Below are positions 30,875-48,079 of a stretch of 64,000 nt of DNA, piece by piece. Source of the stretch: an uncultured Chloroflexia bacterium (GTDB lineage Bacteria > Chloroflexota > Anaerolineae > JAAYZQ01); the NCBI GenBank assembly GCA_963700285.1, contig CAVOXA010000010.1, positions 768,001 to 832,000 of the forward strand, written 5' to 3'. The notes under the pieces are model-generated. The model was not told the origin of the DNA and did not search any database. It worked only from the letters and a program-made list of their open reading frames with translations. A program made the translations under genes and the position numbers. Each line of letters begins with the position of its first letter. The first letter of the stretch is position 1.

Positions 30875-32984
30875 ATGAAGGTGCCCAGTGTGAGAACAGC
30901 CCAACGGACGACCGCGATTGCCCTGCTAGCACTCTCGTTTTTTCTTCTCCTGGCACTACAGATGAGCTCAGTGCTGGCCCAAGAGTCTTCCGACGATGTT
31001 TGGGTCCTGACCGAAACCCTGGTCAATCCCGCAGGCGCAAAAACAGAGTTTATCGGCGGAGGAGCAGATCCAACCTGGTTTCCAGAGCCACGGTTTGAGG
31101 GAAAGCGCGACCGGTGGACCATTACCGAGTCGGCTTTCCGCATCGACACTCGGGATGTTGACCACGGGTATGAATACCACAATGTGAGTCTTCTGGCTGA
31201 CTTTGAGCCGCCGCCGGCCGTCCTCGTCCCCGGGGAGAAGGTCGAGTTGACCGTTACGGGTAGTTACAGCGGCACGGTAGCAGAAGGGCGAGCGGGGCCG
31301 GGCTACCAGTTCTGGTACACCGGCGAGGGCATAGCAGTGGTGCCAGATTCCGTACTCGGCTTTGCTCCGTGGAATATCTACTGGGATGGCAGGGAATCCG
31401 CCACCTACACCCTCGACGTCCCCCAGACCAGGAGCGGGGTAGAAATAAAAGTACACGCTGGCTTGTGGAATGCAGAGCCCGCTCAAGTCGTCTGGATATA
31501 CCAGGCCCAGCAAAGGCCTGAGGGTCAGGGGGCAGAAGAGGGCTCTGGTACGGGAACAGGCACAGAGACTGGAACGGGTACGGCGGACCGGCACCGGAAC
31601 CGGAACTGAAACCGGCACGGGCGCTGGTACTGGCACGGGAACAGGCACAGAGACTGGAACGGGTACAGGGACTGGGACCGGCGCCGGAGCCGGAACTGAA
31701 ACCGGCACGGGCGCTGGTACTGGCACGGACACGGGCACAGGGACCGGCACGGGTACAGGGACCGGTACTGGCACCATCCCGCCCACAACACCCGGCCAGT
31801 ATCCACCGGGCGTCCAGTACCCACCGGGCGCCGTCTGCGGCGTCTACACGGGTGCGACGGTGCCGGTACCCACTGGCGGGGGTACAGGCGGCGCAGACAG
31901 CGGCGCGGCCCCCTGGGATACGGCCCAGGGCCAGGGCTGCTTTGACCGCTGGATCGCCGAGACCGAAGCACGCCTCAACGGCTACGACGGCGACGACGAT
32001 TTCAACGCCCGCAAGCGCTGGACCGTCAACGAGTACGGTGTGTTTGAGGGCAACCCTACCCTTGGCCCCACTTCTCTCGCAGCGCCGGACAATTTCGGCC
32101 AGTTCAACAACAATCGTTACTGGTGGATGTGGGAGCACTACAAGGGCGACTCGGTCTGGGACTGGGGCTGGCCCAACTGGATCGGCGCCCAGGTACCGCC
32201 CCTGCGGCCCTACGTCACCCGCTGCCTGCAGGAGACCGGCGCCACGGCACTGCCCCTGACTGTCATCCCCGCCAGCGGCTTCTGGGTCCGGTCTACCGTC
32301 CCCGGCAACGACTTCACCCCGCCGCCCTTTGGCGCCTTCCCCGAACCCGCGCCCGTGGGCCAGATGGCCCTCCAGGCCGGCCAGCGTCTGGTGCCTCAAG
32401 GCGCGCTGGTCCAATTGCCCGTATACCTGATTAACGGCGCCAACGTGGCCAACGCCAATTTTAACGTCGTCTACGATGCCGGCGTCGCCCGTCCCGAGGG
32501 CGACCTTGTCAAAGGCGCGATCCTCGGCCAGGCCCTCTTTGAGTCCAATACCGCCGAGACCAACCGGATCCGCGCAGGCTTCTCGCAGCAGAACGGCATC
32601 TATGGCACCGGCGCGGTAACCTACATCCCCTTCCGCGCCGTCGGCCCGCCCGGCTCTCGAACCGACCTCTGCCTTGAGGTGACTACCATCAACGACCCCG
32701 GCGGCACCGTGCTGGCCATCGACCGCATCCACGGCTTTATCGAGATTGTCAACGCCGATGGCAGCGGTACCGGGGGTACCGGTCCCGGCAGCAACGGCAT
32801 CCTACCCGGCGATTGTGTTCAGGACGGCATCCTTGACGAGCGCGACGCCGCCTGCGCCCTCCAGATGTCGGTCGGCTTGCGGCCGGAACTGCCCTGGATG
32901 GACATGGATGGTAGCGGCGACGTCACTTCCCGCGATGCTACCATCATCCTGCAGCGGGCCAACGTCTCGCTGGCTGGCCAATAG
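30875..32984 (+). CDS. Secreted modular protein: unknown beta domain, Gly-Thr linker, Trp-rich domain, cohesin, dockerin (frameshift near 31584)
   Basis: Signal peptide ending VLA-Q. Cohesin-like [18 protein letters not shown]...[11 protein letters not shown] at about 32364-32750. Dockerin with duplicated Ca loops [14 protein letters not shown] / [13 protein letters not shown]. ORFs 30875..31609 and 31470..32984 join if one base is removed in the repeat. Confidence 0.8.
31541..31776 (+). repeat. Gly-Thr dipeptide repeat linker with an internal duplication of about 90 bp
   Basis: ccggaactgaaaccggcacgggcgctggtactggcacgg occurs at about 31600 and 31690. Translates (GT)n. Confidence 0.9.
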
Positions 32985-32995
32985 GAGGAGTACCC

Positions 32996-33733
32996 ATGAC
33001 CAGGTCCACGGCTCGCTTGCTGGTTCTCTCGCTGTTGCTGACAGCCGCCCTCGTTGCGGGGCCCGTTGCCTCCGCCCAATCTCTGACGGTCTCTGTCGAA
33101 CCGGCCCAGGCCCCATCCGGGCAGACTGTCGATATCCCCATCCTGGTGAAGGGCTCGCCTGGCTTCTCGGCCATGCACCTGGAGCTGACCTATGATCCCC
33201 AGGTGCTGGCCGTGGAGGCTGTGGAACCCGGCGATCTGGTGGCGGGTAACGCGCTGACAGCATTTAACACCAATGAGCCCGGGCGCGTGGTCATTAGCGT
33301 GGCCGCGGGCGCGCAGGTAGAGGGCGATGGCACCCTGGCTGTGGTGCACTTTCTGGTCGACGGTGAGCGGGGCCAGACCAGCCCCTTGGCTCTGGAGTAT
33401 CCCAAGGCATGGCAGGAATCGGGCTTTGACCTCGTCGTGGACCTCGAACCTGGCGAGTTTACCGTAGCGGCGGACAGCATGCCCCTGCTGCTGGCAGCCG
33501 TGGCCTGCCTGCTGATGCTGGTGCTCTTGCTGGTGGTGGTGCTTCTGATACGGCAACGTCGCCAGCGGAAAACCCAGCCACCACCGCAACCATACCCGGT
33601 CGCTCCCCGGCCGCAGCAGCCCCCAGCGCCGGTGGTGCCGGGCCAGAGACCCAAGTTCTGCGGCAACTGTGGCCAGGCCTTGGAGCCCAGCAAGCGCTTC
33701 TGCATTCACTGCGGCCATCCCGTCGGCGGCTAG
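32996..33733 (+). CDS. Membrane-anchored cohesin-domain protein with cytoplasmic Pro-rich linker and zinc ribbon
   Basis: Signal ASA-Q. Cohesin-like GQTVDIPI..LELTYDP.VL....GDGTLAVVHF. TM helix followed by RQRRQRK, then FCGNCG..FCIHCG. Confidence 0.85.
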   Translation: MTRSTARLLVLSLLLTAALVAGPVASAQSLTVSVEPAQAPSGQTVDIPILVKGSPGFSAMHLELTYDPQVLAVEAVEPGDLVAGNALTAFNTNEPGRVVISVAAGAQVEGDGTLAVVHFLVDGERGQTSPLALEYPKAWQESGFDLVVDLEPGEFTVAADSMPLLLAAVACLLMLVLLLVVVLLIRQRRQRKTQPPPQPYPVAPRPQQPPAPVVPGQRPKFCGNCGQALEPSKRFCIHCGHPVGG

Positions 33734-33752
33734 GTGAGACAGATGCAGCGCA

Positions 33753-34160
33753 ATGATCTGTGCCTATTGTAGCGCCGGACTGATACCGGGCGCCCGCTTC
33801 TGCGGCGACTGTGGGTAGCCCATCCTGGTTGCTTGACCCCTGACCGGGCCGCCAGCCGCGACCTGTACCCACTGTGGCGCGGTCCTGGCACCGGGGCCAG
33901 CTTCTGTGCCGACTGCGGACAGCCGCTGGCAGGTGCCCTCACCCCACCGCCCTTTGCGCCCGTGCCCGCAGCCGCCCATTCTCGAGAGTGTGCGCGCTGG
34001 CCGCTGGGTGGCCTTTGCCCATAGCTGAGACAGCAACGGAGATGTGCGCATGGACGGCCAGGATGCGGCCAACATCTCTGCCATACCGCTGCAGGGTGGT
34101 AAACCAGTCTCGCTGGTTTCCAGTCCTCATCGAGACACTGACCCAACCTGGACGCGCTAG
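33753..34160 (+). pseudogene. Decayed double zinc-ribbon gene with a possible PD40/TolB-like tail
   Basis: MICAYC..FCGDCG then a TAG stop at 33816. TCTHCG..(frameshift)..FCADCGQP follows. The 3' fragment ends LVSSPHRDTDPTWTR. Confidence 0.6.
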
Positions 34161-34185
34161 GGCCTGTTTTTGTCAACTGAAAAGA

Positions 34186-35108
34186 GGTTCTTCCGCAATT
34201 TTCGTGAAATTGCGGTCTGCAGTGTGCGAGTATAATAGGGACTTTACCAAACAGGAGGAACGTCCCCATGCTTGCCCAAGTGCTCTTGCCGTGCTCGACC
34301 AATCTGGAGCTTGACGAAGCAGTTGTTGAGGATGAAGTGATCACCGTAACGGTCAACTCGCAGCGGACAGACGCAGGCTGTCGGACATACCATCAATCGT
34401 CTGCGCGGGTACAGAGCCGCTATTGGCGAATAGTGGCCGATTTATCGTGTGCCGAACGCAGTGTTCGACTTCACTTGCGAGTCCGTCCCTTCTTCTGTGA
34501 CAATGCAGTGTGCAAACGCAAGACCTTTGCCGAAAGGTTTCCAGGAATCGTTGCACCCTATTCCCGGCGAACCAGTCGCCTGGCTGCCACACGGCGTCGG
34601 TATACGTGAAGAGAAAGAAGATGATTCACTGCTGACCAAGTTAGAACAAAGACAACAAGGATACTCGGGCTCGCGTCCATTGGTCAGCCGTTGGGCGGCG
34701 CAGATGCGCAAGCAGGAGCCCACGCTCTCAACAGATGCTCAAGTGCATGTCAAACCGAAAAGGCAGGTGAAACGAGCCTGGTCGGCACGGTACGCCGTTT
34801 GGTTGCTTTTCAGCCAGCTAGAAACATTGTCTGCGACCGCTATGCCAAGTCCATGGAACCTTGGTTGACCGCTGTGATTGAGTCCAAGATTCCAGAACTG
34901 AATGGCTTTGCCCGAAGCCTCAGTCGAGACAAAGATGCGGTTCTCGCTGCTTTGTCATTGCCTTGGAGCAACGGGCAGGTTGAAGGACAAGTCAACCGTC
35001 TGAAACTGATCAAACGTCAGATGTACGGGCGGGCCAAGTTCGATCTGCTCCGCTTGCGGGTCTTGGCCCACTCATGATCGTAGCTTTCACGGAAATTGCG
35101 GAAGAGCC
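34186..35108 (+). mobile_element. Internally deleted ISL3-family insertion sequence (923 bp) with intact terminal inverted repeats
   Basis: IRL ggttcttccgcaattttcgtgaaa against reverse-complemented IRR ggctcttccgcaatttccgtgaaa (22/24 match). Transposase pieces include the zinc-finger region RVQSRYWR...FFCDN..C.RKTFAE and the C-terminus WSNGQVEGQVNRLKLIKRQMYGRAKFDLLR. Confidence 0.92.
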
Positions 35109-35110
35109 CC

Positions 35111-35398
35111 CTTGGGCTTGGCACGCCATGTGGGCCGTACCTTTCTCCACCCCGATGGCACCGACCACGCTCTCTTGGCACGCCTCTATCCCTATGGTTC
35201 CCCCCTCTGGAAAGAACACTGCGACGCCCGCAAAAATGCTGTCGAGGACGAAACAGTCAGACCACCCGTTTGGGCCTCAAGCGCATCTGGTCCTATGGCC
35301 TGGCCGGGGCCACAGCCGACATTGCCTTTGCCGACTTGCTCATCAACTTGCGTACCCTTGGCCGACTGGTCCAGGAGGCTACTCTGCTCTGTGACTAA
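35111..35398 (+). mobile_element. Transposase C-terminal remnant, paralog of 6763-7863
   Basis: LARLYPYGSPLWK..ARKNAVE/RNSQ..LGLKRIWSYG..FAD...LRTLGRLVQEAT aligns with LVRDLPVGSTAWK..ARNASEARN..NLKRLPVYG..LAD...LTTLARLVREAT. Confidence 0.75.
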
Positions 35399-35825
35399 CC
35401 ATCCACCCACGGCAAATCCGTGGGCGGATGCCTAATCGCCTGCCCTATACCTGCCTGCTGCAAACACCCTCCCGCTGCGGGCCGTTGGCCCCTGCCTACC
35501 TGTCTCCCCCGCGCCCCACTGCCGTTCCCTTGACTCCCACCTCAGCCTCTCACAAGTGCCGCTGTCGACTTTTCGACCAAAACCAGACCCGACACCAAGC
35601 CACAGCAGCGAATTGTCGCTCCCTTGCCCAGCAATCGTTGCACCCCACAACCCTCGAGATTCGTCCAAAAACTCGCTTAACCCTCGCATCCCACTGCCCC
35701 TACACCTCATCTTCTACCAGACTACTACCAGTGCCCACAATTGCTGCGCTATGCCTCCAACTTTTTTCTTTCCCCTCTAGAACCTTTCACGCTATAATCC
35801 GTATAGACAGTGCATGGAGGACGAT

Positions 35826-36373
35826 GGATGGACCAAGAGCAGACCTGGATCGAAGGCGCGCTCAAGGGGGACACAGCGGCCTTTGGCCGGCTGGTAGAGG
35901 CCTATGAGCGGCCGGTTTACAATCTGACCTATCGCATGTTGGGCGATCCCGCCGAGGCGGAGGACGCCGCCCAGGAGACCTTTCTGCGGGCCTACACCAA
36001 GCTGGCCACCTACCAGCCCAGCCGCAAGTTCGTCAACTGGCTGTTGTCCATTGCCTCGCACCACTGCATCGACCGCCTGCGTAAGAGGGGGCGGGCGCCG
36101 CAGCTCTCGCTGGAGGGGCCACTGCCGCCCCAGTGGCTGACCAGCAGCGCGCCGCGGCCCGACGAGGTGGTGGACAGGAAGCAGAAGCGCGAGCGCGTGC
36201 GGGATTCGCTGGAGACGCTGCCACCCGACTATCGGGCGGCCATCGTGCTCCGCTACTGGTACAACTACTCCTACCAGGAGATCGCCGGCCTGATGGACAC
36301 CACCGAGAGCGCCATCAAGTCGCGCCTTCACCGGGCGCGGCGGATGCTGGCCGGGCAGCTGGAAGCCGCTTAG
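35826..36373 (+). CDS. ECF RNA polymerase sigma factor (SigW-like)
   Basis: AEDAAQETFLRAY, WLLSIASHHCIDRLRK and SYQEIA...IKSRLHRAR. Confidence 0.95.
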
Positions 36374-36387
36374 AGGAAGAATGATTG

Positions 36388-36463
36388 AACCACAGAGACA
36401 CGGAGAACACAGAGAAAGCTCAGAAGGTTTTGGGGTTCTCTGCGTCCTCTGCGTCTCCGCGGT
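36388..36463. repeat. Intergenic imperfect inverted repeat built from 9-bp units (cacagaga-type REP-like element)
   Basis: accacagagacacggagaacacagagaa ... ttctctgcgtcctctgcgtctccgcggt. Confidence 0.8.
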
Positions 36464-36499
36464 GAAAGTACAGGGACAGACCGGGCACGGGGGAGAGAC

Positions 36500-37090
36500 G
36501 TGATGGATGATGCGATGGAATGCAAGCAAGGCGAACAGATGACGATGCTTATGTCACTGTCCCTGGACGGCATGTTGGATCGGGATGGCCAGCACCGCTT
36601 GGAGCGGCATGTGGCTGCCTGCGCCTCATGTCGGTGGGAATGGCAGGCCATGCGCCAGGTATCGAACCTGTTCGAGGCGGAACCAATGGTTGGTCCACCT
36701 TTAGGCTTTGCTGTCCGCATCGAGCGGCGGTTGGAGGCGAAGGCTGTGCAGCGGAAGCGGACCTTTGGCGGTGCGGCGGTGGTGACAAGCTGGCTGTCGC
36801 TGGCGGGCATGACGGTCGGCGCCGTGGTGCTGGTCGTTCTCGGGGTCATGGGCTGGCAGTGGTTCGGCTCGCTGGGCTCAGTACAGACGGGGGCCAGCGC
36901 CCTGTCGCAGGTAGCCGGCAACGTGGGCCTGCTGGGTAGGGGAGCCAGTTTCTTCTTGGGCGAGGCGCTGCTGCGTTATGGCCTGCCCCTGGTGGCCCTG
37001 CTGGCCGTTGGCCTGACCGTACTGGCCGGTGCCTGGACCTGGATGGTGGTGAAACGGCCAGGTGGCTCGCGGCGTAATGGATTTGTGTAG
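36500..37090 (+). CDS. Zinc-binding anti-sigma factor (zf-HC2) with TM helices
   Basis: LERHVAACASC (HxxxCxxC), directly downstream of the ECF gene. Confidence 0.88.
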   Translation: MMDDAMECKQGEQMTMLMSLSLDGMLDRDGQHRLERHVAACASCRWEWQAMRQVSNLFEAEPMVGPPLGFAVRIERRLEAKAVQRKRTFGGAAVVTSWLSLAGMTVGAVVLVVLGVMGWQWFGSLGSVQTGASALSQVAGNVGLLGRGASFFLGEALLRYGLPLVALLAVGLTVLAGAWTWMVVKRPGGSRRNGFV

Positions 37091-37215
37091 CGGGGCTCGG
37101 TCAGGAGGCCTTCGCCCATCAAAGGTGGCGGGGCTCGGGCCTGACAGTTGGAGACCTTCGCATAGAGAGACCCAGCACCGACTGTTTACGGCGGTGCAAG
37201 ACAAGGAGGTTGGCT

Positions 37216-38505
37216 GTGAAAAAGCGAGTGTTGTCGCTGGGTTTGTTGGTGCTGCTTTTGCTGTTGCTTGCAACTTCGGCCCTGGCGGCGGGGCCCATCG
37301 TATTTGACGAAAACGGGCGGATCTTTGTAGACGAGGACCTGCGGCTGGCGGAAGGCGAGATCTTTTACGGTGACGTGGGCATTTTTGACGGCAACCTCAT
37401 CGTGCCCCAGGGCGCCGCTGTGAAGGGCGATGTGTTTGTCACCAACGGCGACGCCGAGATCGACGGGGCCACCAGCGGTGACTTGGCCGTCATCAACGGC
37501 GACGTGGATCTGGCTGAGACGGGTGTCGTGGAGGGCGATCTCTTTGTTATGAGCGGCCACGTGAAGGTGGCCGGCCGGGTGGGCGGCGACCTTTCGGTCA
37601 TGTTCGGCGAGATGATGCTGGAGGGCACGGCCGACGTCGAGGGCAGCGCCACGGTCTTCTCGGGCAGCTACGAGCGGGAGACGGGTGCCCTGGTGCGGGG
37701 CGAAGAGATCCCCAACGTGCCCCTGCCCAAGGTGCCGTTCATTCCCGAGGTACCGCAGGTACGCGAGATCCCCGAAGTCCCAGCCCTGCCCAAGCTGACG
37801 CCGCCCGCGCCGCCTGTACCGCCCCTGTTCCACCAGCCCACCCTGGGCCAGCGCATCGGCAACTTTTTCGGGCGGGCCATGGGCGCCAGTTTCATGAGCC
37901 TCATCTTTATCGCTGTGGGTATCCTCCTCGTCCTGATATGGCCGCGGACCACCCACCGGGTGGCGGATTGTATTGCCGCCCTGCCGTTGCAGAGCTTTGG
38001 CCTGGGTTTGTTGACCTTTCTGATGGCCTTTGTGCTCGAGGCACTGGCCGTGCTGCTGATGATCCTCATTATCCTGGTGGCCACGCTGATGATCGGCACC
38101 ATAATCCTCATCCCCATTGGCCTGCTCCTGATCTTGCTCTCGGTGCTGGTCCTGCTGCCGGTGCCCCTGGCTCTGGTTGCCGGGGTGGTCCTGGGCTGGG
38201 TCGGCCTGGCCGAGATGGTCGGGCGCCGGCTGCTCAGGGCGCTGAAGGTCGACGCCGTGAAACCGCTGGGCGCCGTGATCGCCGGCCTGGTGGTCACCGT
38301 GCCGCTGGCCGCCATCTTGTGGGTGATCCAGCCGGCATGTTGCGCCTGGCCCTTTATTATTCTGCTTACCAGCGTGGGCCTGGGGGCCGTGATCCATACC
38401 CGCTTTGGTACGCAGAGTTGCCAGAGTTCTGGCCCGCACGAGCAGTTTGAGGCACTGCCCATGGACGCCATGGATGACGAGATCGGCCGGCCTGACGGCC
38501 CTTAA
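37216..38505 (+). CDS. Bactofilin-like (polymer-forming cytoskeletal) beta-helix protein with multi-TM C-terminus
   Basis: Signal peptide, repeated V.GDV.V..G....G units, a Pro-rich linker and about 5 TM helices. Confidence 0.78.
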   Translation: MKKRVLSLGLLVLLLLLLATSALAAGPIVFDENGRIFVDEDLRLAEGEIFYGDVGIFDGNLIVPQGAAVKGDVFVTNGDAEIDGATSGDLAVINGDVDLAETGVVEGDLFVMSGHVKVAGRVGGDLSVMFGEMMLEGTADVEGSATVFSGSYERETGALVRGEEIPNVPLPKVPFIPEVPQVREIPEVPALPKLTPPAPPVPPLFHQPTLGQRIGNFFGRAMGASFMSLIFIAVGILLVLIWPRTTHRVADCIAALPLQSFGLGLLTFLMAFVLEALAVLLMILIILVATLMIGTIILIPIGLLLILLSVLVLLPVPLALVAGVVLGWVGLAEMVGRRLLRALKVDAVKPLGAVIAGLVVTVPLAAILWVIQPACCAWPFIILLTSVGLGAVIHTRFGTQSCQSSGPHEQFEALPMDAMDDEIGRPDGP

Positions 38506-40728: not shown

Positions 40729-43224
40729 GTGACAGCCGAACACCGTCCTGCCAGTGAATGTCCCAGTTGTGGCCGTTTCATCGGGCCCTACGGCAAGTGC
40801 CCCTACTGTGGCGCGGATGTCGGCCAGCGTATGGTGGTCCGCGCCTTCAAGGTTGGCAGTCTGTTGCTGGCCATCGGCGGTGTGGCAGTGCTGCTATATG
40901 CCGCGAGCCGGACACAAGTTCCGCCGGTAGAGATACGCAGCCTGGTGGGGACGATGAACTGGGCCTACGTCCGCCTCGAGGGAGTGGTCACTCGCCAGCC
41001 CACCCACGATCAGGCTGCCGGAACCCTCAGGTTCTGGCTGTGGGACGGCACAGGCGAGATCCTGGTCATCGCCTACCGCTCCGAAGCGGAAAAGCTGCTG
41101 GCCAGGGGCCTCGTACCGGTAATGGGTGACAACGTGGCCCTGGAGGGCACGCTGCGCATCAAGGATGATTTCCAATACTTGGTCCTCGATGTGCCCCAGA
41201 ATACCAAAGTCCGGCCGGCTGAGCCGCTCCAACTGCCCGTCGCCAGGGTGGACTTGGGCCTGCTGCACCAAACGGTGACGGTCCAAGGTGTGGTCCGCGA
41301 CGATCGCGTACCCTACCAGGGCTTGCGCATCTTGACGCTGCGCGACGATTCGGGCGAGGTTGACGTGACCCTCGCTACAGGGCCGGACACATTCCTGGGA
41401 GACCTGCCTGGGTTGAGCGTGGGCCAGCCGGTGCAGGTGACGGGGGCCGTGGACCAGTACAAGGGCACGGCGCAGATATCTGTAGGCCGCGGGAGCGACC
41501 TGGTGGTGCTAGATGAAGACCTGGCTATCGCGCCGTGGCGCCAGATTGGCGAACTCTCGACGCGGGATGTGGGGGGCATGGCCCTCATCGAGGGAACCAT
41601 CGTCGGGATTGATCCTTTCTCCGCCGGGGTCAAGTGTAGTCTGGACGATGGCACTGGTACAGCGACCATGCTCCTGTGGCAGGACCTGAGCAATTCCCTG
41701 GCAGAAGGGCAGGCGCTCGCCGCGGGGACCCAGGTCCGGGTCCAGGGCGAGGTGGCGGAATACCGGGGTGAGCTGGAGATCATACCTCAGATTCCATCTG
41801 ACGTGGCGGTCCTGGCGACCGGCTCGCCGGTCGTTGACTCGCGGCAGTTGGGTGAACTGGGGCCTGATGACGCTGGCCGAGTCGTGGCGGTGCAGGGGGT
41901 GCTTCGCTCGCTGCAGACCTTCTCCGCCGGGGTCAAGGGTACGCTGGACGACGATACCGGCGCAGTGACGTTGCTGCTGTGGCAGGACTTGTACGAAGCC
42001 CTGCCCGACCCCGTGCGCTTGGCGCCGGGGGCGGTCCTTGAGGTACAGGGCAAAGTCACTCTATACCAAGGCGAACTGGAGATCGTCCCCAGGACCCCGG
42101 CCGATCTGGTAGTGACTGGCCTGGTCGCGCTACCAACGGACCAGCGGGCCATCGACCAGGTCTCGGCCGGTGATGTCGGCCAAAGGATAGAGGTGTCGGG
42201 CCAGGTTGTGGAGGCGGTACCCTTTTCCAAGGGGATCCGCTATACCTTGGACGACGGTACAGGTACCTTAACTTTACTGATATGGCAGAACCTCTACAAG
42301 CAGATACCGGACGCCGGCCTGCTGGCCGCGGGCGCGGAGGTCGCGGTACAGGGCGAGGTAGTCGAGTACCATGGCGAACTGGAGGTCGTGCCCCAAATGC
42401 CGGCTGATGTGCGGGTGATTGCCCCCGCTGCAGTCGCCGTGGCGGCGCCCACAGTGACTGCGGAGGCCGCGGTCTCGCCAGAGGCAGCGCCCTCGCCGGC
42501 CGCGACACTTACACTGGCACCTCCAACTGCGCCGGCCACGACGAGCACCGTCGAGCCTCTGGTCCTGACGCCGGAACCGCCTACGCAACCCGTACCCTCG
42601 GCGACGGCAAAGGCCACGCTCACGCCCTCGTTCGAGACGAGGGCCATCGGCGCTATCTCTGCCGGCGATGTCGGGCGTACACTGACCATCGCCCAGGCCG
42701 GGATCGCCGGGGTCGATTACTTTTCCGCCGGTGTCAAATATACGCTGGTCGATGCGACCGGCAGCATCATTCTCCTGTTGTGGCAGAATATCCTGGAAGG
42801 GATCCCCGAGCGCTACGACCTGGTTCCCGGCAGCCAGGTCCGCGTCACCGGGGGTGTGGATCAGTACACCGGCCAGTTGGAGATCATCCCTGGGGATGGG
42901 GCTGCGCTCAAGGTGCTTTCCAGGGGCGAAGGCCTGCCCATTGAAGAGCGGCAGGCTGGCAATGTGACGGCCTCCGACGAGGGCCGCATCTTTGCCATCG
43001 AGGGATCCGTGACCCATACGGAGAACAAAGGCTGGCTCAAGGTGTGGCTCGGTGATGGGACGGGCGAGATCCTGATCTTTGTGCCGGAGCGCACAGTGCC
43101 CTATCTGCCTTCCGGCATCGGAAATGGGGTGAGGCTGCGGGTCACCGGTGAGGTGGATATTTACCAGAACGTCATCGAGATCATCCCTCTGGCCGGGGCG
43201 GACGTTGAGGTTCAGGGGCCATGA
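40729..43224 (+). CDS. Membrane-anchored protein with N-terminal zinc ribbon and seven tandem OB-fold domains
   Basis: CPSC..CPYC, one TM helix, then seven repeats of V...G.V...L.D.(T/S)G.....W...G..V.V.G.V..Y.G.LEI.P, with a Pro/Thr/Ala linker between repeats 5 and 6. Confidence 0.88.
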   Translation: MTAEHRPASECPSCGRFIGPYGKCPYCGADVGQRMVVRAFKVGSLLLAIGGVAVLLYAASRTQVPPVEIRSLVGTMNWAYVRLEGVVTRQPTHDQAAGTLRFWLWDGTGEILVIAYRSEAEKLLARGLVPVMGDNVALEGTLRIKDDFQYLVLDVPQNTKVRPAEPLQLPVARVDLGLLHQTVTVQGVVRDDRVPYQGLRILTLRDDSGEVDVTLATGPDTFLGDLPGLSVGQPVQVTGAVDQYKGTAQISVGRGSDLVVLDEDLAIAPWRQIGELSTRDVGGMALIEGTIVGIDPFSAGVKCSLDDGTGTATMLLWQDLSNSLAEGQALAAGTQVRVQGEVAEYRGELEIIPQIPSDVAVLATGSPVVDSRQLGELGPDDAGRVVAVQGVLRSLQTFSAGVKGTLDDDTGAVTLLLWQDLYEALPDPVRLAPGAVLEVQGKVTLYQGELEIVPRTPADLVVTGLVALPTDQRAIDQVSAGDVGQRIEVSGQVVEAVPFSKGIRYTLDDGTGTLTLLIWQNLYKQIPDAGLLAAGAEVAVQGEVVEYHGELEVVPQMPADVRVIAPAAVAVAAPTVTAEAAVSPEAAPSPAATLTLAPPTAPATTSTVEPLVLTPEPPTQPVPSATAKATLTPSFETRAIGAISAGDVGRTLTIAQAGIAGVDYFSAGVKYTLVDATGSIILLLWQNILEGIPERYDLVPGSQVRVTGGVDQYTGQLEIIPGDGAALKVLSRGEGLPIEERQAGNVTASDEGRIFAIEGSVTHTENKGWLKVWLGDGTGEILIFVPERTVPYLPSGIGNGVRLRVTGEVDIYQNVIEIIPLAGADVEVQGP

Positions 43225-44540
43225 ACTATCTGGTTCTGGTGGGCGCGGCGCTGGTCGGTACGGTCCTGTCGGCGTTTCTGTCCTGTATCCCGGCGCTGCA
43301 CATCTACAACGTGGCCGCCCTGCTGGTTGTCCTGGCCGTCAAGGTCCGAGGGCTGGTGCCCGACGAGCCTTTGGCCATGTTCATGCTGGGCTTGGTGGTC
43401 GGCTACGCGGTATTGAACACGATCCCCAGCATCTTTCTGGGCGCGCCGGACGATAGTACCGTCTTTGTCGTGCTTCCCGGGCAAAAGTACCTGATGGAGC
43501 GCAGGGGGTACGAGGCCGCAGTACTAACGGGGGTAGGCGGGCTGGGCGGACTGCTGGTACTGCTCCTTCTGGCCCCGGTCATGCCCACGGTTTTGCCCAT
43601 CGTCCGCAGGGTGGTCGGGCCGCACCTGCATTGGATCCTGGGGGCGGTGATCCTGTTCATGCTGATGAGCGAGTGGCCCAAGGGATCTGACCGAGGCAGT
43701 ACCGGCATGGCCAGGTTTCTCGACGCCTGGCGTTCGGTGGGGGCGGGGCTGCTGACCTTTCTGCTGTCAGGCATGCTGGGCTTCATCCTGTTCTACGGCA
43801 ACCTGGTGCCGACAGAGATGGCCTTTCAGAACCTGATGCCGGCCTTTGTCGGTCTTTTTGCCATGCCCTGGGTGTTGCAGAACATCATCTCCCGGGCCCA
43901 GGTGCCGGCCCAACACGTGGCCGGATCGGTGGACCTTTCGCCGGGGTTGATTGCCCGTGGGGTGGGCGCCGGCGCCTTGGGTGGTCTCTTTGCCGCCTTT
44001 TTCCCGGTTGTGACAGGGGGCATCGGTGGTTTTCTGGCGGGCCATGCCACTGCCCAGCGTGATGACCGGCTGTTTATTGTCAGCCAGGGGGCCAGCAAGC
44101 TGATCTACTATGTGGGGGCCTTTATCTTTTTCTTTGTACCGGGGTTGCACCTGACCCGCGGAGGGATGGCCTGGATGCTGAGCGTGCTCTATACGCCCCG
44201 TACGCCGGCCATCTACTGGGTAGCCATCGCGGCGATGCTCATCAGCGGGGCGCTGGCTTTTCTGATGCTGCTCTGGCTCAGCCGGGGAGCCATCCGGCTC
44301 GTGACGCACGTTGACTATCGGTGGATTTCGGCCGCGACACTGCTGGTATTGGTTTCCATTGTGCTGCTGCTGACGGGCTGGGGTGGGCTGCTCATCGCCT
44401 TGGCGGCTACGGGCATCGGCCTGCTGCCGGTGATGTGGGGGGCAAGGCGCATGAACTGCATGGGCGTCCTGTTACTGCCCCTAACGTTGAGTCTGGCTGG
44501 CCATGGGACGACGGTGGCTAGCTGGTTGGGATTGATCTAG
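43221..44540 (+). CDS. TctA-family (archaeal-type, COG1784-like) permease
   Basis: SCIPALHIYN, NTIPSIFLGAPD and VLPG..Y....GYEA. About 12 TM helices, 439 aa. Confidence 0.82.
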   Translation: MNYLVLVGAALVGTVLSAFLSCIPALHIYNVAALLVVLAVKVRGLVPDEPLAMFMLGLVVGYAVLNTIPSIFLGAPDDSTVFVVLPGQKYLMERRGYEAAVLTGVGGLGGLLVLLLLAPVMPTVLPIVRRVVGPHLHWILGAVILFMLMSEWPKGSDRGSTGMARFLDAWRSVGAGLLTFLLSGMLGFILFYGNLVPTEMAFQNLMPAFVGLFAMPWVLQNIISRAQVPAQHVAGSVDLSPGLIARGVGAGALGGLFAAFFPVVTGGIGGFLAGHATAQRDDRLFIVSQGASKLIYYVGAFIFFFVPGLHLTRGGMAWMLSVLYTPRTPAIYWVAIAAMLISGALAFLMLLWLSRGAIRLVTHVDYRWISAATLLVLVSIVLLLTGWGGLLIALAATGIGLLPVMWGARRMNCMGVLLLPLTLSLAGHGTTVASWLGLI

Positions 44541-44568: not shown

Positions 44569-45507
44569 ATGTCACATCCGTTTGAAGTAGGCAAGACCTA
44601 TCGGAATCGAAACGGCGAGTACATCGTGCAGGCCGTCGACGGCGACCAGATGACCATCCGCTACGTGAGTGGGGGAACACTGCAGACCAGCGCCGCCATC
44701 CAGGCCCGCATCTGGGAGAACATCCACTTTGAGTACCAGATTGAGCAGGAAGAAGAGAAGCGCAGTCTAGCCAGAGATGCTAGACTAGAGGCCAGAAAAC
44801 GCAAGGCTGCTGCCCAAAAGGCCCTGGCCGCACCCAAGTACGGGGGCTTTCAGGAGGGAGACTTTGAGCTTAAGAAGCGGGGGATCGCCTGGTCGGGCCG
44901 GGAGCAGGCGGGCAAGGCCCTGGCGTACCAATTGGGCCAGCGTGTCGAAGGGAGTTTTGGTTCCTGGATTGTACCCCGCAAGTCGCAGGTCCACGTGGCC
45001 CGCAAAGAGCACTATGATCGGGACGCGCGCGACACCAACGCGATGTTTTTTGTGACCGTGGATGAGGGTGGCGTGAACTATGGTTTCCGGACGGGCAGAC
45101 CCAACGGCAAGGAAGACGCCGGGTGGCCCTGGTCGACCCTCATAGCGATTCTGGCCGATGACAAGGAGGTACGACAAGCTCTTCGGGCGGCGATGAAAGA
45201 CCAGGGCCTGACCCTGGACGTCTATGCTGAGGAGATCAGCTACCAGCAGGTCGGGCAGATCCTGCTCGAGGGCAGAGGATTCCTTTGGCAGCACGAGACC
45301 GCGGAACAAGAGATAACGCAGAAGATGAACTGGAATCAACTCGTAGAATACCTCGAGACCGTGACGCCCAACAAGCGCTGCGATCTCTATCTGCGCAAAC
45401 ACCTCACCGCCGAGGCCGCGCTGGAACTGGGTGCGGCTGCCACGGATGAGATTGCCGGTGTCTTTGAATCTCTGATGCCGGTGTATGACGCCAGTGTGGT
45501 GGCCTAG
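44569..45507 (+). CDS. Hypothetical cytoplasmic protein
   Basis: 312-aa ORF with a GGGAGG RBS and a typical coding pattern. Family not recognised. Confidence 0.75.
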   Translation: MSHPFEVGKTYRNRNGEYIVQAVDGDQMTIRYVSGGTLQTSAAIQARIWENIHFEYQIEQEEEKRSLARDARLEARKRKAAAQKALAAPKYGGFQEGDFELKKRGIAWSGREQAGKALAYQLGQRVEGSFGSWIVPRKSQVHVARKEHYDRDARDTNAMFFVTVDEGGVNYGFRTGRPNGKEDAGWPWSTLIAILADDKEVRQALRAAMKDQGLTLDVYAEEISYQQVGQILLEGRGFLWQHETAEQEITQKMNWNQLVEYLETVTPNKRCDLYLRKHLTAEAALELGAAATDEIAGVFESLMPVYDASVVA

Positions 45508-45593: not shown

Positions 45594-46115
45594 ATGAAGC
45601 AGTTGCGGGGTACGCCCCTCAAGCGGTTTTTGCGGTCCCTGCCGGCGCCGCTATCGCCGGCAGAGTTGGTTGTGGTCTGCCAAAGCGTGGCCTATCCGGT
45701 CAATGTCGGTTCGATCTTTCGCATTGCCGATGCGCTGGGCGCTGGCGAGGTTATTTTGACTGGCATCACACCCCGGCCGCCCCATCCAACCATCAGCAAG
45801 GTCGGGCGGAACAAGGACCAGCGCGTACCTTGGCGCTACGTCGAGCGGCCCGAAGCCGCCCTAAGAGACCTCCGGGAGCGGAGTTACTGGATCGTCGCCT
45901 TGGAGGTCACAGATCTGTGCCATCCTTACTATGGCGTGGACTACCCCCAGCGGGTGGCCCTGGTGCTGGGCAACGAGGATCACGGCGTCACCCGAGCATG
46001 TCTGGACCTTTGCGATGCGGCAGTCTTTGTTCCTATGTATGGTAGCGGCAAATCGCTGAACGTCCACGTCTCACTGGCCGTGGTTGGCTACCATCTACTA
46101 CACAGGCAACTATGA
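45594..46115 (+). CDS. TrmH/SpoU-family RNA methyltransferase
   Basis: NVGSIFRIADA, LVLGNEDHG and PMYG..KSLNV. Confidence 0.92.
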   Translation: MKQLRGTPLKRFLRSLPAPLSPAELVVVCQSVAYPVNVGSIFRIADALGAGEVILTGITPRPPHPTISKVGRNKDQRVPWRYVERPEAALRDLRERSYWIVALEVTDLCHPYYGVDYPQRVALVLGNEDHGVTRACLDLCDAAVFVPMYGSGKSLNVHVSLAVVGYHLLHRQL

Positions 46116-46484: not shown

Positions 46485-47045
46485 ATGATGAGTGACTTGT
46501 TTGACAAACTAATGGAAAGCGCGGGACAGGTGATTTCGGAGGTAGACAAGGGAGGACAGATCCAATCGGCGGTTGGTGGCCTGCGCCAGCGGATGGTGGA
46601 TGCTGAGCGCAACCGCAAGATCAACCTGGTGAAGCAGCAGATCCGGGACCTGCAGTCGCAGGAGGCCCAAACCATCAGCGCCCTCAGCGCACAGGTACTG
46701 GCCTTGCACGAGGCCGGGACGCTCACCCAGCCGGAACTGAAGAGCCTGTGCAGGAACGTGGATGAGATCCGGGTTCAGATCCGGGAGCAGGAGGCGGAGC
46801 TGAAAGCGATACAACCTGTACAGCCCAAACCAGTTGCTAGCGCCCAGTGCCCCCACTGCGGGGCGTCCGTCACCGCTGAGGGTACCTTTTGCCAAACCTG
46901 TGGCGGTCGCCTGACCAAAGAGCAAAAACCGGATCCTATCCGCTTCTGCGTTCACTGCGGCGCTCAACTACGCGAGGGTGCGCGCTTTTGCCCCAAGTGC
47001 GGCCAGACGGTGCCGCAAGGCCAGGAAACGGCTCCAACATCATGA
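46485..47045 (+). CDS. Coiled-coil plus double zinc-ribbon protein
   Basis: CPHCG..FCQTCG and FCVHCG..FCPKCG. Confidence 0.85.
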   Translation: MMSDLFDKLMESAGQVISEVDKGGQIQSAVGGLRQRMVDAERNRKINLVKQQIRDLQSQEAQTISALSAQVLALHEAGTLTQPELKSLCRNVDEIRVQIREQEAELKAIQPVQPKPVASAQCPHCGASVTAEGTFCQTCGGRLTKEQKPDPIRFCVHCGAQLREGARFCPKCGQTVPQGQETAPTS

Positions 47046-48079
47046 AGGGCATCGCCCATTTTGCTACGGGCCTCGCCGTGGCGAGTTTTTTCCCTGGCGT
47101 TGTCCACAGTGCAGCCCAAAGCTCAAGCTTTGGCTTGGTACTGGGCGGGCTAGCGGGGTTGCTACCGGATACCCTGGACTTCAAATTCTTTCGCTACTTT
47201 GAGCGGGTCGACGACGAGATCGACCCAGCCAAGATCACCACCACTGAGGGATACCCTGATCCCCAGGCCATGGCCCAGCGGATCGCGGCGGCCATGAACC
47301 ATGCCTACAAGCGTAATACCAGGACCAAAGTACAACTGCATACGCTCCGGCTGGGGACTGACCTCTGGCGTCAGTATAGCGTAACCCTGGATGCGGTGAG
47401 CAGGCAGGTCCTGGTTCGTATCGGACCGATTGTGACCACAGGGCAAGTACCCTATGTCGGCAGTGAGATCTCCGGTCTAGCACCTGGACAAGTGCAGGTC
47501 GAGGCGCCTATCCTGCATACCTACGACGCAGAGACCAAGATTGACATTTTCAGCGGCCCCTCTCTGGCCTTCGAGCGCGCCGATGATGCGGTCAAGGTGA
47601 CCTTTGTGCCCTGGCACCGCGTCTGGACCCACTCGCTGCTGATGGTGCTGCTTCTGGGAGCGATAGGCACCCTCATAGGCCCGGTATACGGCTTGGTCAT
47701 GGCCATGGCTGCCCTGGCCCATATTCTGGCAGATCAGATGGGTTGCATGGGCTGTAACCTCTTTTTCCCGCTGACCCGCAGCCGCGCGCCGGGACTCAGG
47801 TGGATGCGCTCCGGTGATGCGATCCCAAATTTCCTGACGGTTTGGATCAGCATGGCCGTCCTGTTTCTGAACCTTGACCGCTTTTCAGAAGCCCCCTCCA
47901 TTCCTGTATGGCCATACCTGCTGGGTATGATCATGGTTCCCTGTCTGTTCTTTCTCGGATTGGCAACATGGGATCGTCTGCGCAGCCACCGGCAGCCAGC
48001 GGCGTACCCGAAGAGGTTGGCTGTGGCAGCCATGGCGGCCGTCGAGGCGTTGGACGAAACCAGCGAGGTGGACATCTAG
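47042..48079 (+). CDS. Membrane-bound metal-dependent hydrolase (YdjM-like) with a large insertion
   Basis: MKGIAHFATG, GLLPDTLD, HRVWTHS and HILAD. ATGA overlap with the previous gene. Confidence 0.85.
   Translation: MKGIAHFATGLAVASFFPGVVHSAAQSSSFGLVLGGLAGLLPDTLDFKFFRYFERVDDEIDPAKITTTEGYPDPQAMAQRIAAAMNHAYKRNTRTKVQLHTLRLGTDLWRQYSVTLDAVSRQVLVRIGPIVTTGQVPYVGSEISGLAPGQVQVEAPILHTYDAETKIDIFSGPSLAFERADDAVKVTFVPWHRVWTHSLLMVLLLGAIGTLIGPVYGLVMAMAALAHILADQMGCMGCNLFFPLTRSRAPGLRWMRSGDAIPNFLTVWISMAVLFLNLDRFSEAPSIPVWPYLLGMIMVPCLFFLGLATWDRLRSHRQPAAYPKRLAVAAMAAVEALDETSEVDI

Follow-up and report, generated by a model that had tools for sequence, protein, structure and literature searches.

The window analysed here is a stretch of 64,000 nucleotides from an uncultured Chloroflexia bacterium (positions 768,001 to 832,000 of contig CAVOXA010000010.1, assembly GCA_963700285.1), and it contains two adjacent genes coding for a membrane-anchored protein with seven OB folds and a stand-alone permease of the TctA family (Table 1). 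The first gene starts with a GTG codon and overlaps the second in the sequence ATGA, at the coordinates of the original prediction, a model's annotation made from the sequence alone. It had described an 831-residue protein with a zinc ribbon, one membrane helix and seven OB folds overlapping a 439-residue TctA permease, and this anatomy is borne out by the open reading frames (ORFs), the profiles and a structural model. From its anatomy and homology, the pair appears to be a bacterial, expanded multi-OB form of an archaeal pair of OB and TctA-like genes; the arrangement has already been published for Methanococcus maripaludis, and is thus of a known kind. A third gene, coding for a YdjM-like membrane protein, travels with the pair and was missed in the original prediction.

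Table 1. Features of the OB-fold protein, permease and YdjM-like genes in the window.
Feature	Coordinates	Strand	Basis
Membrane-anchored seven-OB-fold protein, 831 residues	40729..43224	+	ORF list, Pfam, relatives' profile, AlphaFold2
C4 zinc ribbon, N-terminal, residues 11-27, predicted cytoplasmic	40759..40809	+	Cys conservation; positive-inside rule
Single membrane helix, residues ~42-60	40852..40908	+	Hydropathy; co-fold interface
OB1-OB5	40915..42423	+	Conservation, repeat comparison, co-fold
Pro/Thr/Ala-rich linker between repeats 5 and 6	42424..42624	+	Gene split here in 17 related loci
OB6-OB7	42625..43221	+	Motif scan, relatives' profile
Stand-alone archaeal-type TctA-like permease, 439 residues	43221..44540	+	PF01970, profiles, tree
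YdjM-like membrane protein, 345 residues, conserved His/Asp, soluble insert	47042..48079	+	PF04307, E-value 7e-14

Relatives of the OB protein are 38-91% identical to it, the closest (91%) likewise being 831 residues long, and complete copies carry between four and seven repeats. Named relatives are from Anaerolineae and other Chloroflexota. Pfam PF01336 matches the protein with an E-value of 2.5e-42, with only five stretches passing individually; a profile built from the relatives detects all seven repeats, and there are seven DxTG-type motifs (at residues 106, 206, 307, 408, 509, 675 and 776). An AlphaFold2 model of residues 61-364, spanning repeats 1-3, has three OB barrels (mean pLDDT 93.5), and a sequence search of solved structures with the whole protein gave two chance matches only. 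Repeats OB3-OB5 are 46-50% identical and have a conserved set of Phe, Trp and Tyr residues, and OB1 and OB2 have conserved Arg and Lys as well as aromatic residues. At the N-terminus, the zinc-ribbon cysteines (C11, C14, C24 and C27) are kept in every aligned row that covers them, and conserved basic residues (R16, K23, R34, R38 and K41) lie ahead of the anchor helix; following the positive-inside rule, the ribbon is predicted to be on the cytoplasmic side. A promoter and terminator scan found no sigma-70-like site directly 5' of the OB gene and nothing decisive. Two sediment RNA runs contain a few 150-250 bp pieces, 98-100% alike, within both genes, in contigs of depth 2-3 that are uninformative as to transcription, its level or an operon, and since every run covers a small share of the stretch, a habitat is not assignable.

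The permease is the sole PF01970 (TctA) gene found in the genome and belongs to a low score class of that family (E-value 1.8e-35; 122.9 bits against a cut-off of 28.9). Among 301 genomes of the class (Anaerolineae, going by what its relatives are called), full-length canonical TctA proteins (~500 residues) score 320-560 bits, whereas full-length proteins of the window type score 67-135. PF01970 was rejected as a means of counting permeases because it missed ten divergent or cut copies that a custom profile caught. The original observation that no tctB or tctC lies nearby holds genome-wide, with neither found in the 89%-complete assembly; in controls, the TctB and TctC searches gave positives in three and four of 14 genomes. 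When relatives are represented at 50% identity, the best 150 representatives include a group of 425-450 residue proteins and another of mostly 390-460 residues. The first group is probably bacterial, since Anaerolineae sequences fall within it and the OB protein's Atlas clusters are led by Kiritimatiellota, Chloroflexota and Verrucomicrobiota. Profiles of the bacterial-type and archaeal-type permeases align over 420 columns (probability 100, E-value 5e-72). In a quick tree of 73 rows, with the root unsure, the window permease is in a 39-row clade (SH-aLRT 100) that shares its side of the tree with the archaeal-type rows; five canonical TctA proteins (those of 16 fetched loci that the custom profile detected) are set apart by a long branch, at a distance of 4.5 plus 1.2 changes per column. 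The best BLAST E-value between the permease and five canonical Anaerolineae TctA proteins is 0.61. These comparisons support a permease of the archaeal stand-alone type, in a clade of its own and distinct from the citrate TctA, as the original prediction had proposed. Its further suggestion that the OB array replaces TctC fares less well; TctB and TctC are indeed not found, but the replacement is an analogy only, the TctC-dependent permeases being remote from this lineage.

The permease model (pLDDT 86.9) gave no Foldseek match at an E-value of 0.001 or better, and a sequence search of solved structures gave none at E-values up to 1. Distant TctA-like genes (25-29% identity) are present on two cyanobacterial plasmids, NZ_CP060823.1 and NZ_CP112877.1. 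Two archaeal-type permeases (P0385, 576 residues, and P0390, 536 residues) have a beta-rich insert in the loop matching window residues 150-165, which resembles the OB profile weakly (E-values 7e-3 and 7e-5 in a one-sequence search); this loop is predicted to be cytoplasmic, and the insert could receive cargo inside the cell.

The pairing of the OB and permease genes is conserved. In the bacterial loci compared (the best 80 of 228 permease relatives) the OB gene is upstream of the permease in 61, and in 14 of the other 19 it is elsewhere in the genome. Of the 301 class genomes, 59 carry the permease, 60 the OB gene and 61 the YdjM-like gene; all three are present in 55, at least one in 63 and none in 238, and 57 of the 59 permease-carrying genomes have the OB gene; the genomes are related, and such counts overstate the number of independent events. 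In the order to which the genome belongs, the permease occurs in 12 of 23 genomes, and an OB orthologue is missing from all 11 of the rest (there is one weak partial match). Only one of 16 genomes with a canonical TctA has the OB gene, and that genome has the stand-alone permease too. A phylum-wide search with a single protein matched few genomes (5 of 301, one of them weakly), so the module is patchy. The OB and TctA coupling to which the original prediction pointed is thus conserved across relatives, and is also seen in 36 of 80 archaeal-type loci (see below).

True fusions of the two genes were considered and rejected, as the 816-1121 residue frames over the permease in relatives are overlapping GC-rich frames or involve a scaffold gap. 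Three fusion-like single records may be errors or decayed loci and are not used as support: in P0270 (852 residues) OB-like repeats precede the permease, and in P0322 and P0380 a zinc ribbon and anchor helix (E-values of 9e-11 and 9e-10 against the window protein) are joined to a degenerate permease. There are also instances where the three genes are far apart in the genome and all are retained, in one single-contig genome (G353) and in two families (f83 and f6); the OB protein of family f6 is short, of two-repeat size.

The YdjM-like gene lies 2.5 kb downstream of the pair, and three other ORFs are between them. It is present in 36 of 80 related loci, and in the 301-genome profile its distribution is near that of the pair. 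Five residues (H6, D46, H197, H227 and D231) are invariant in 23 rows, and YdjM presumably belongs to the phospholipase C/P1 nuclease superfamily; a search of solved structures with a YdjM-like profile gave no match, the best E-value being 0.16. The three intervening ORFs code for a 312-residue protein without a Pfam family (44569-45507), a SpoU methylase (45594-46115) and a coiled-coil double zinc-ribbon protein (46485-47045), the stop of the last overlapping the start of the YdjM-like gene in an ATGA, and each recurs in only six or seven of 81 loci. A gene with LTD and PLD-family domains follows the YdjM-like gene in 11 of the 80 loci, and was rejected as a core part of the module, since 139 of the 301 class genomes carry it, a far wider distribution. 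A gene of this type is on another contig of the genome (C9:199560-201590), split over frames in this assembly, and a further contig (C14:183390-186968) codes for a predicted lipoprotein with LTD, OB folds, DUF11 and an exonuclease/endonuclease/phosphatase domain, likely an extracellular nuclease.

Fonseca et al. 2023 (PMC10133366) describe the archaeal counterpart. In M. maripaludis JJ, natural transformation requires both MMJJ_13020 (an OB fold and one helix) and the adjacent MMJJ_13030 (a TctA-like protein of 11 helices); a transposon screen brought out the two genes, and deletion of either abolishes transformation, with rescue in trans. According to the same study, a homolog of the permease (SAMN04488571_104187) is essential too in Methanoculleus thermophilus. 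The statement in the original prediction that a TctA-family gene acts in methanogen transformation is therefore right, for two methanogens, with an OB gene in one of them.

We compared the window pair with archaeal-type loci, taken as the best 80 of at least 557 relatives. A profile of the Anaerolineae repeats finds an OB gene in 45 of these. In 36 loci a small OB gene immediately precedes the permease in the same orientation, and 31 of these small proteins have a hydrophobic helix at the N-terminus. When the 36 archaeal partners are made into a profile, it in turn matches all seven window repeats (E-values from 3e-9 to 4e-15 in a one-sequence search), including OB1 together with its helix, such that the profiles match in both directions. 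The OB profiles also match other OB folds weakly, and adjacency therefore bears part of the homology argument. Many of the archaeal partners are neutral or basic. The five neighbours tested at the archaeal-type loci are archaeal markers (PolD large subunit, L35ae, Orc1/Cdc6, NAC and a family B polymerase). The published primers place the stop of the methanogen OB gene against the permease start, and a primer ~500 bp into the methanogen permease encodes a motif that recurs in 18 of 39 archaeal-type rows (residues 157-168) and in the window protein (at residue 181). A locus pattern derived from the M. maripaludis primers had no match in a metagenome collection. For the bacterial form of the OB and TctA-like pair, a literature search lacking most subscription papers found no paper.

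Two lines of evidence bear on how the proteins are arranged in the membrane. First, 17 loci have the array divided at the linker, with the last two OB folds on a gene of their own; a strict lipobox is present in 15 of these 17 second halves, whereas among other open frames (a loose control, many of them not being genes) 10 of 1167 have one. Since the second halves are mostly predicted lipoproteins, the OB array most likely faces outwards. Second, the mean number of Lys and Arg residues divides the permease loops: loops 74-96, 150-171, 277-284, 355-368 and 406-411 have 2.0-4.5, loops 118-134, 224-244 and 306-331 are intermediate (1.5-1.7), and loops 41-48, 193-204 and 386-390 and the C-terminus have 0.04-0.9. 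When the permease is co-folded with residues 1-265 of the OB protein, the OB1 contacts fall on the low-charge loops. The co-fold scores 0.71 (0.67, 0.71 and 0.73 in separate runs), whereas the best of three controls reaches 0.00; at least 85% of contacts are common to the runs, and the partner pLDDT is at least 77. Of solved complexes, 116 of 157 reach this mark, as do 2 of 215 mismatched pairs; with alignments built here these counts are only approximate. In the co-fold the anchor helix packs on permease helices (residues 178-195 and 388-406), and OB1 touches permease residues 191-204, 321-325 and 427-439, with the invariant M76, N77, A79 and T141 on the OB1 side of the interface. Memory of a similar complex is unlikely because no solved relative of the permease was found. 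The two proteins are thus predicted to bind each other, with OB1 as the predicted docking domain, and both the outward array and the contact are in line with what the original prediction supposed. Of the outcomes that would have refuted that prediction, three could be tested here, and none of them arose.

The closest structures to the OB model are anticodon-binding domains of tRNA synthetases (Z 14.2, root-mean-square deviation [rmsd] 1.9, 92 residues aligned); M. maripaludis RPA gives Z 13.3 (rmsd 1.5, 83 aligned), and there are further matches to RPA, STN1, Teb1 and HIN domains. We read this proximity of the model to nucleic-acid binders as support for a nucleic-acid cargo. The repeats are of the nucleic-acid-binding OB type in their fold and in having aromatic residues where strands 3 and 4 end. 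Phe, Trp and Tyr are conserved in OB3-OB6, several Arg residues are conserved in OB1 and OB2, and a single Tyr is unchanged in all of 21 bacterial and archaeal repeats. In STN1, the residues aligned to the OB3 Trp and Tyr are again a Trp and a Tyr, and the two OB3 residues would be equivalent to W107 and F135 of RPA32, as described in PMC3136212. When the 21 repeats are searched singly, the OB fold of exonuclease VII matches 11 of them and the YgiW/YdeI (BOF) model matches five, weakly.

That the module is real and conserved is clear, and from the models it probably is a physical complex. The explanation we favour, with a rough probability of 0.5, is that the OB protein, permease and YdjM-like protein would form a surface complex that captures single-stranded nucleic acid and passes it inward, whether for recombination or for feeding, as an expanded bacterial form of the M. 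maripaludis transformation pair. Docking on the permease would be through the anchor helix and OB1; the zinc ribbon would face the cytoplasm and the OB array the exterior, and OB2-OB7 would hold bases by stacking on Phe, Trp and Tyr rather than by charge. The permease would move a strand or short oligonucleotide inward, the YdjM-like protein would hydrolyse something at the membrane, and the complex would act beside ComEC, perhaps without a pilus. As to cargo, import of a strand or oligonucleotide is the best single reading, at even odds, with digestion products next and a role outside nucleic acids after that. A bolder proposal, which we put forward only tentatively, is that the OB array, the TctA-like channel and a strand-processing YdjM-like hydrolase may constitute a three-part DNA import machine in archaea and several bacterial phyla. 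This would be a second route of natural transformation, unrelated to ComEC, with the seven-fold array replacing the pilus as the part that catches DNA and the anchor-OB1 docking site forming the conserved core of the archaeal DNA transporter. In either form, the predicted interface of the anchor helix and OB1 with defined permease helices and loops offers a mutable target, and a third partner is named.

Several observations weigh against import of nucleic acid by this complex. On the archaeal side, M. thermophilus is without a clear homolog of the OB gene and the DNA-transporter role of the TctA-like protein is the authors' hypothesis, both according to the methanogen paper (PMC10133366); in 44 of the 80 archaeal-type loci no OB gene was detected directly upstream (eight of the 44 have less than 500 bp of upstream sequence); and orthology to the M. 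maripaludis proteins would rest on family, gene order and primer fragments. The overstatement of independent events by related genomes, noted above, belongs here also. A shared OB fold in itself shows no function. Finally, a wide structural search with the permease model gave weak matches to small-solute carriers (e.g. barley YS1; Z 11.5, rmsd 7.5, 286 aligned). As these are its nearest structures, a small cargo fits better than a strand, and the matches are too weak either to identify or to exclude the permease fold.

The carrier-like matches favour the best surviving alternative, an unlikely one in our view, in which extracellular DNA or RNA is held by the array and cut up by nucleases at the surface, and only nucleotides, nucleosides or very short oligomers pass through the permease, as nutrients; the archaeal defect would then be indirect or a lineage-specific use. 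It also draws on the LTD-PLD gene adjoining the module in some loci, on a match of the OB protein to the OB region of the extracellular nucleases ExeM and NucH (weak; E-value 3e-9, far under the cut-off), on a strand channel already being supplied by comEC, and on the retention of the module in a family with no detected pilus ATPase (see below). However, salvage of nucleotides leaves unexplained why both genes are strictly required for plasmid transformation of M. maripaludis (PMC10133366). The PLD gene, moreover, is far more widespread than the module, and no recurrent nucleoside catabolism gene is among the most frequent neighbour clusters examined.

The charge of the array could point to a different cargo. 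All seven OB repeats are acidic (isoelectric points of 4.1-5.3) with conserved Asp or Glu in each. The acidity counts against nucleic-acid capture, as the ComEC OB fold binds DNA through basic residues (PMC12455585). The BOF model NF033674 scores 44.5 bits against the whole protein, above its cut-off of 35, although no single stretch passes, and YgiW is a structural match to the OB model (Z 10.9, rmsd 2.3, 85 aligned); in PMC6370654 the BOF family is predicted to bind cationic ligands. YdjM is described in PMC11442139 as a predicted membrane hydrolase, possibly a phospholipase. The repeats could then bind peptides, polyamines, metals or envelope parts, with the permease and YdjM-like protein serving envelope or lipid upkeep and the methanogen defect being a side effect on the surface or pilus. 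We regard this as improbable, and place it after the feeding role. Nucleic-acid-binding OB folds outrank YgiW both by structure and by profile, and in the single-repeat searches above the BOF model matches fewer repeats than the exonuclease VII fold; the conserved aromatic residues of OB3-OB6 and arginines of OB1 and OB2 are not what it would lead one to expect, nor is the neutral or basic character of many archaeal partners.

The genome has a three-domain comEC gene and a comEA-like gene, as well as dprA, which is broken into two pieces (in two frames at C9:180205-180823); all three genes are on contigs other than that of the module. All 25 relatives tested have comEC, whether or not they carry the module. 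With comEC everywhere that was tested there is no gap for the module to fill, and it is not a stand-in for a missing ComEC. Uptake independent of ComEA and ComEC, as first proposed, may therefore run in parallel with the standard route but not instead of it, and the standard route is not missing. This weakens the case for import by the module, as do the pilus data. The methanogen needs pili (PMC10133366); here, pilus ATPase and platform genes were not found in the 89%-complete genome; and a pilus-type ATPase shows no link to the module, being present in 32 of the 39 genomes that have it and 33 of the 41 that do not (with only 21 candidates scored per genome). In family f6, the pilus ATPase was found in none of six genomes tested and the module is present in all 11 of the family. 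The module can thus persist without a detected pilus, yet is no general pilus replacement; replacement as a rule was rejected, as most module genomes retain a pilus-type ATPase.

The ubiquity of comEC, with the comEA-like and dprA genes here and the conserved zinc ribbon on the predicted inner side, suggests a helper role in which the complex gathers DNA at the surface or signals through the ribbon while ComEC does the transporting. This has little probability, however, as archaea use the pair without ComEC (PMC10133366), and no competence gene is among the frequent annotated neighbour clusters. Finally, the module is not an ordinary TctABC transporter with tctB and tctC elsewhere or lost from the assembly and the OB gene a chance neighbour: the PF01970 match and the incompleteness of the genome allow such a reading the very slightest probability, and it is already contradicted by the failure to find tctB or tctC, the separate clade and score class, the near absence of the OB gene from canonical-TctA genomes, the tight co-occurrence and the co-fold.

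Upstream of the module, the window codes for two cohesin-domain proteins, an ECF sigma factor with a zinc-finger anti-sigma factor, and a bactofilin-domain protein (31470-38505).

Four known systems invite comparison with the surface complex favoured here. With TctABC (PF01970, PF07331 and PF03401) the module shares the Pfam family of the membrane subunit, but TctB and TctC are not found, the permease has 439 rather than ~500 residues, and its partner is an anchored OB array. The BOF proteins (YgiW, YdeI and NirD) are likewise exported acidic OB folds, with the summed score above the cut-off and the structural match at Z 10.9; we take them to be small, single-domain exported proteins (one example is 15 kDa), whereas the window protein is an 831-residue anchored array of seven folds, no repeat of which passes singly, and RPA, STN1 and anticodon-binding domains are closer to it. 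With ComEC (PMC12455585) there is a common logic, in that an OB fold facing outward acts together with a membrane protein and a metal hydrolase; there is no sequence or family relation, three genes take the place of one, the OB folds are acidic rather than basic and charge-driven, and the module coexists with comEC.

The closest system is that of MMJJ_13020 and MMJJ_13030. The window pair differs from it in having a bacterial host with comEC, in the YdjM-like third gene, and in pilus genes not being found in the 89%-complete genome. It has seven OB folds and a zinc ribbon where the 36 archaeal partners have one OB fold and no ribbon (the repeat number of the methanogen's own protein being unseen), and its permease is in a separate clade from the archaeal-type proteins, with a longer loop near residues 150-170. 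What the two have in common is the order of an OB gene and then a permease gene, abutting one another, an OB partner with a single helix, a stand-alone TctA-like permease without TctB or TctC, and a permease motif at the matching position.

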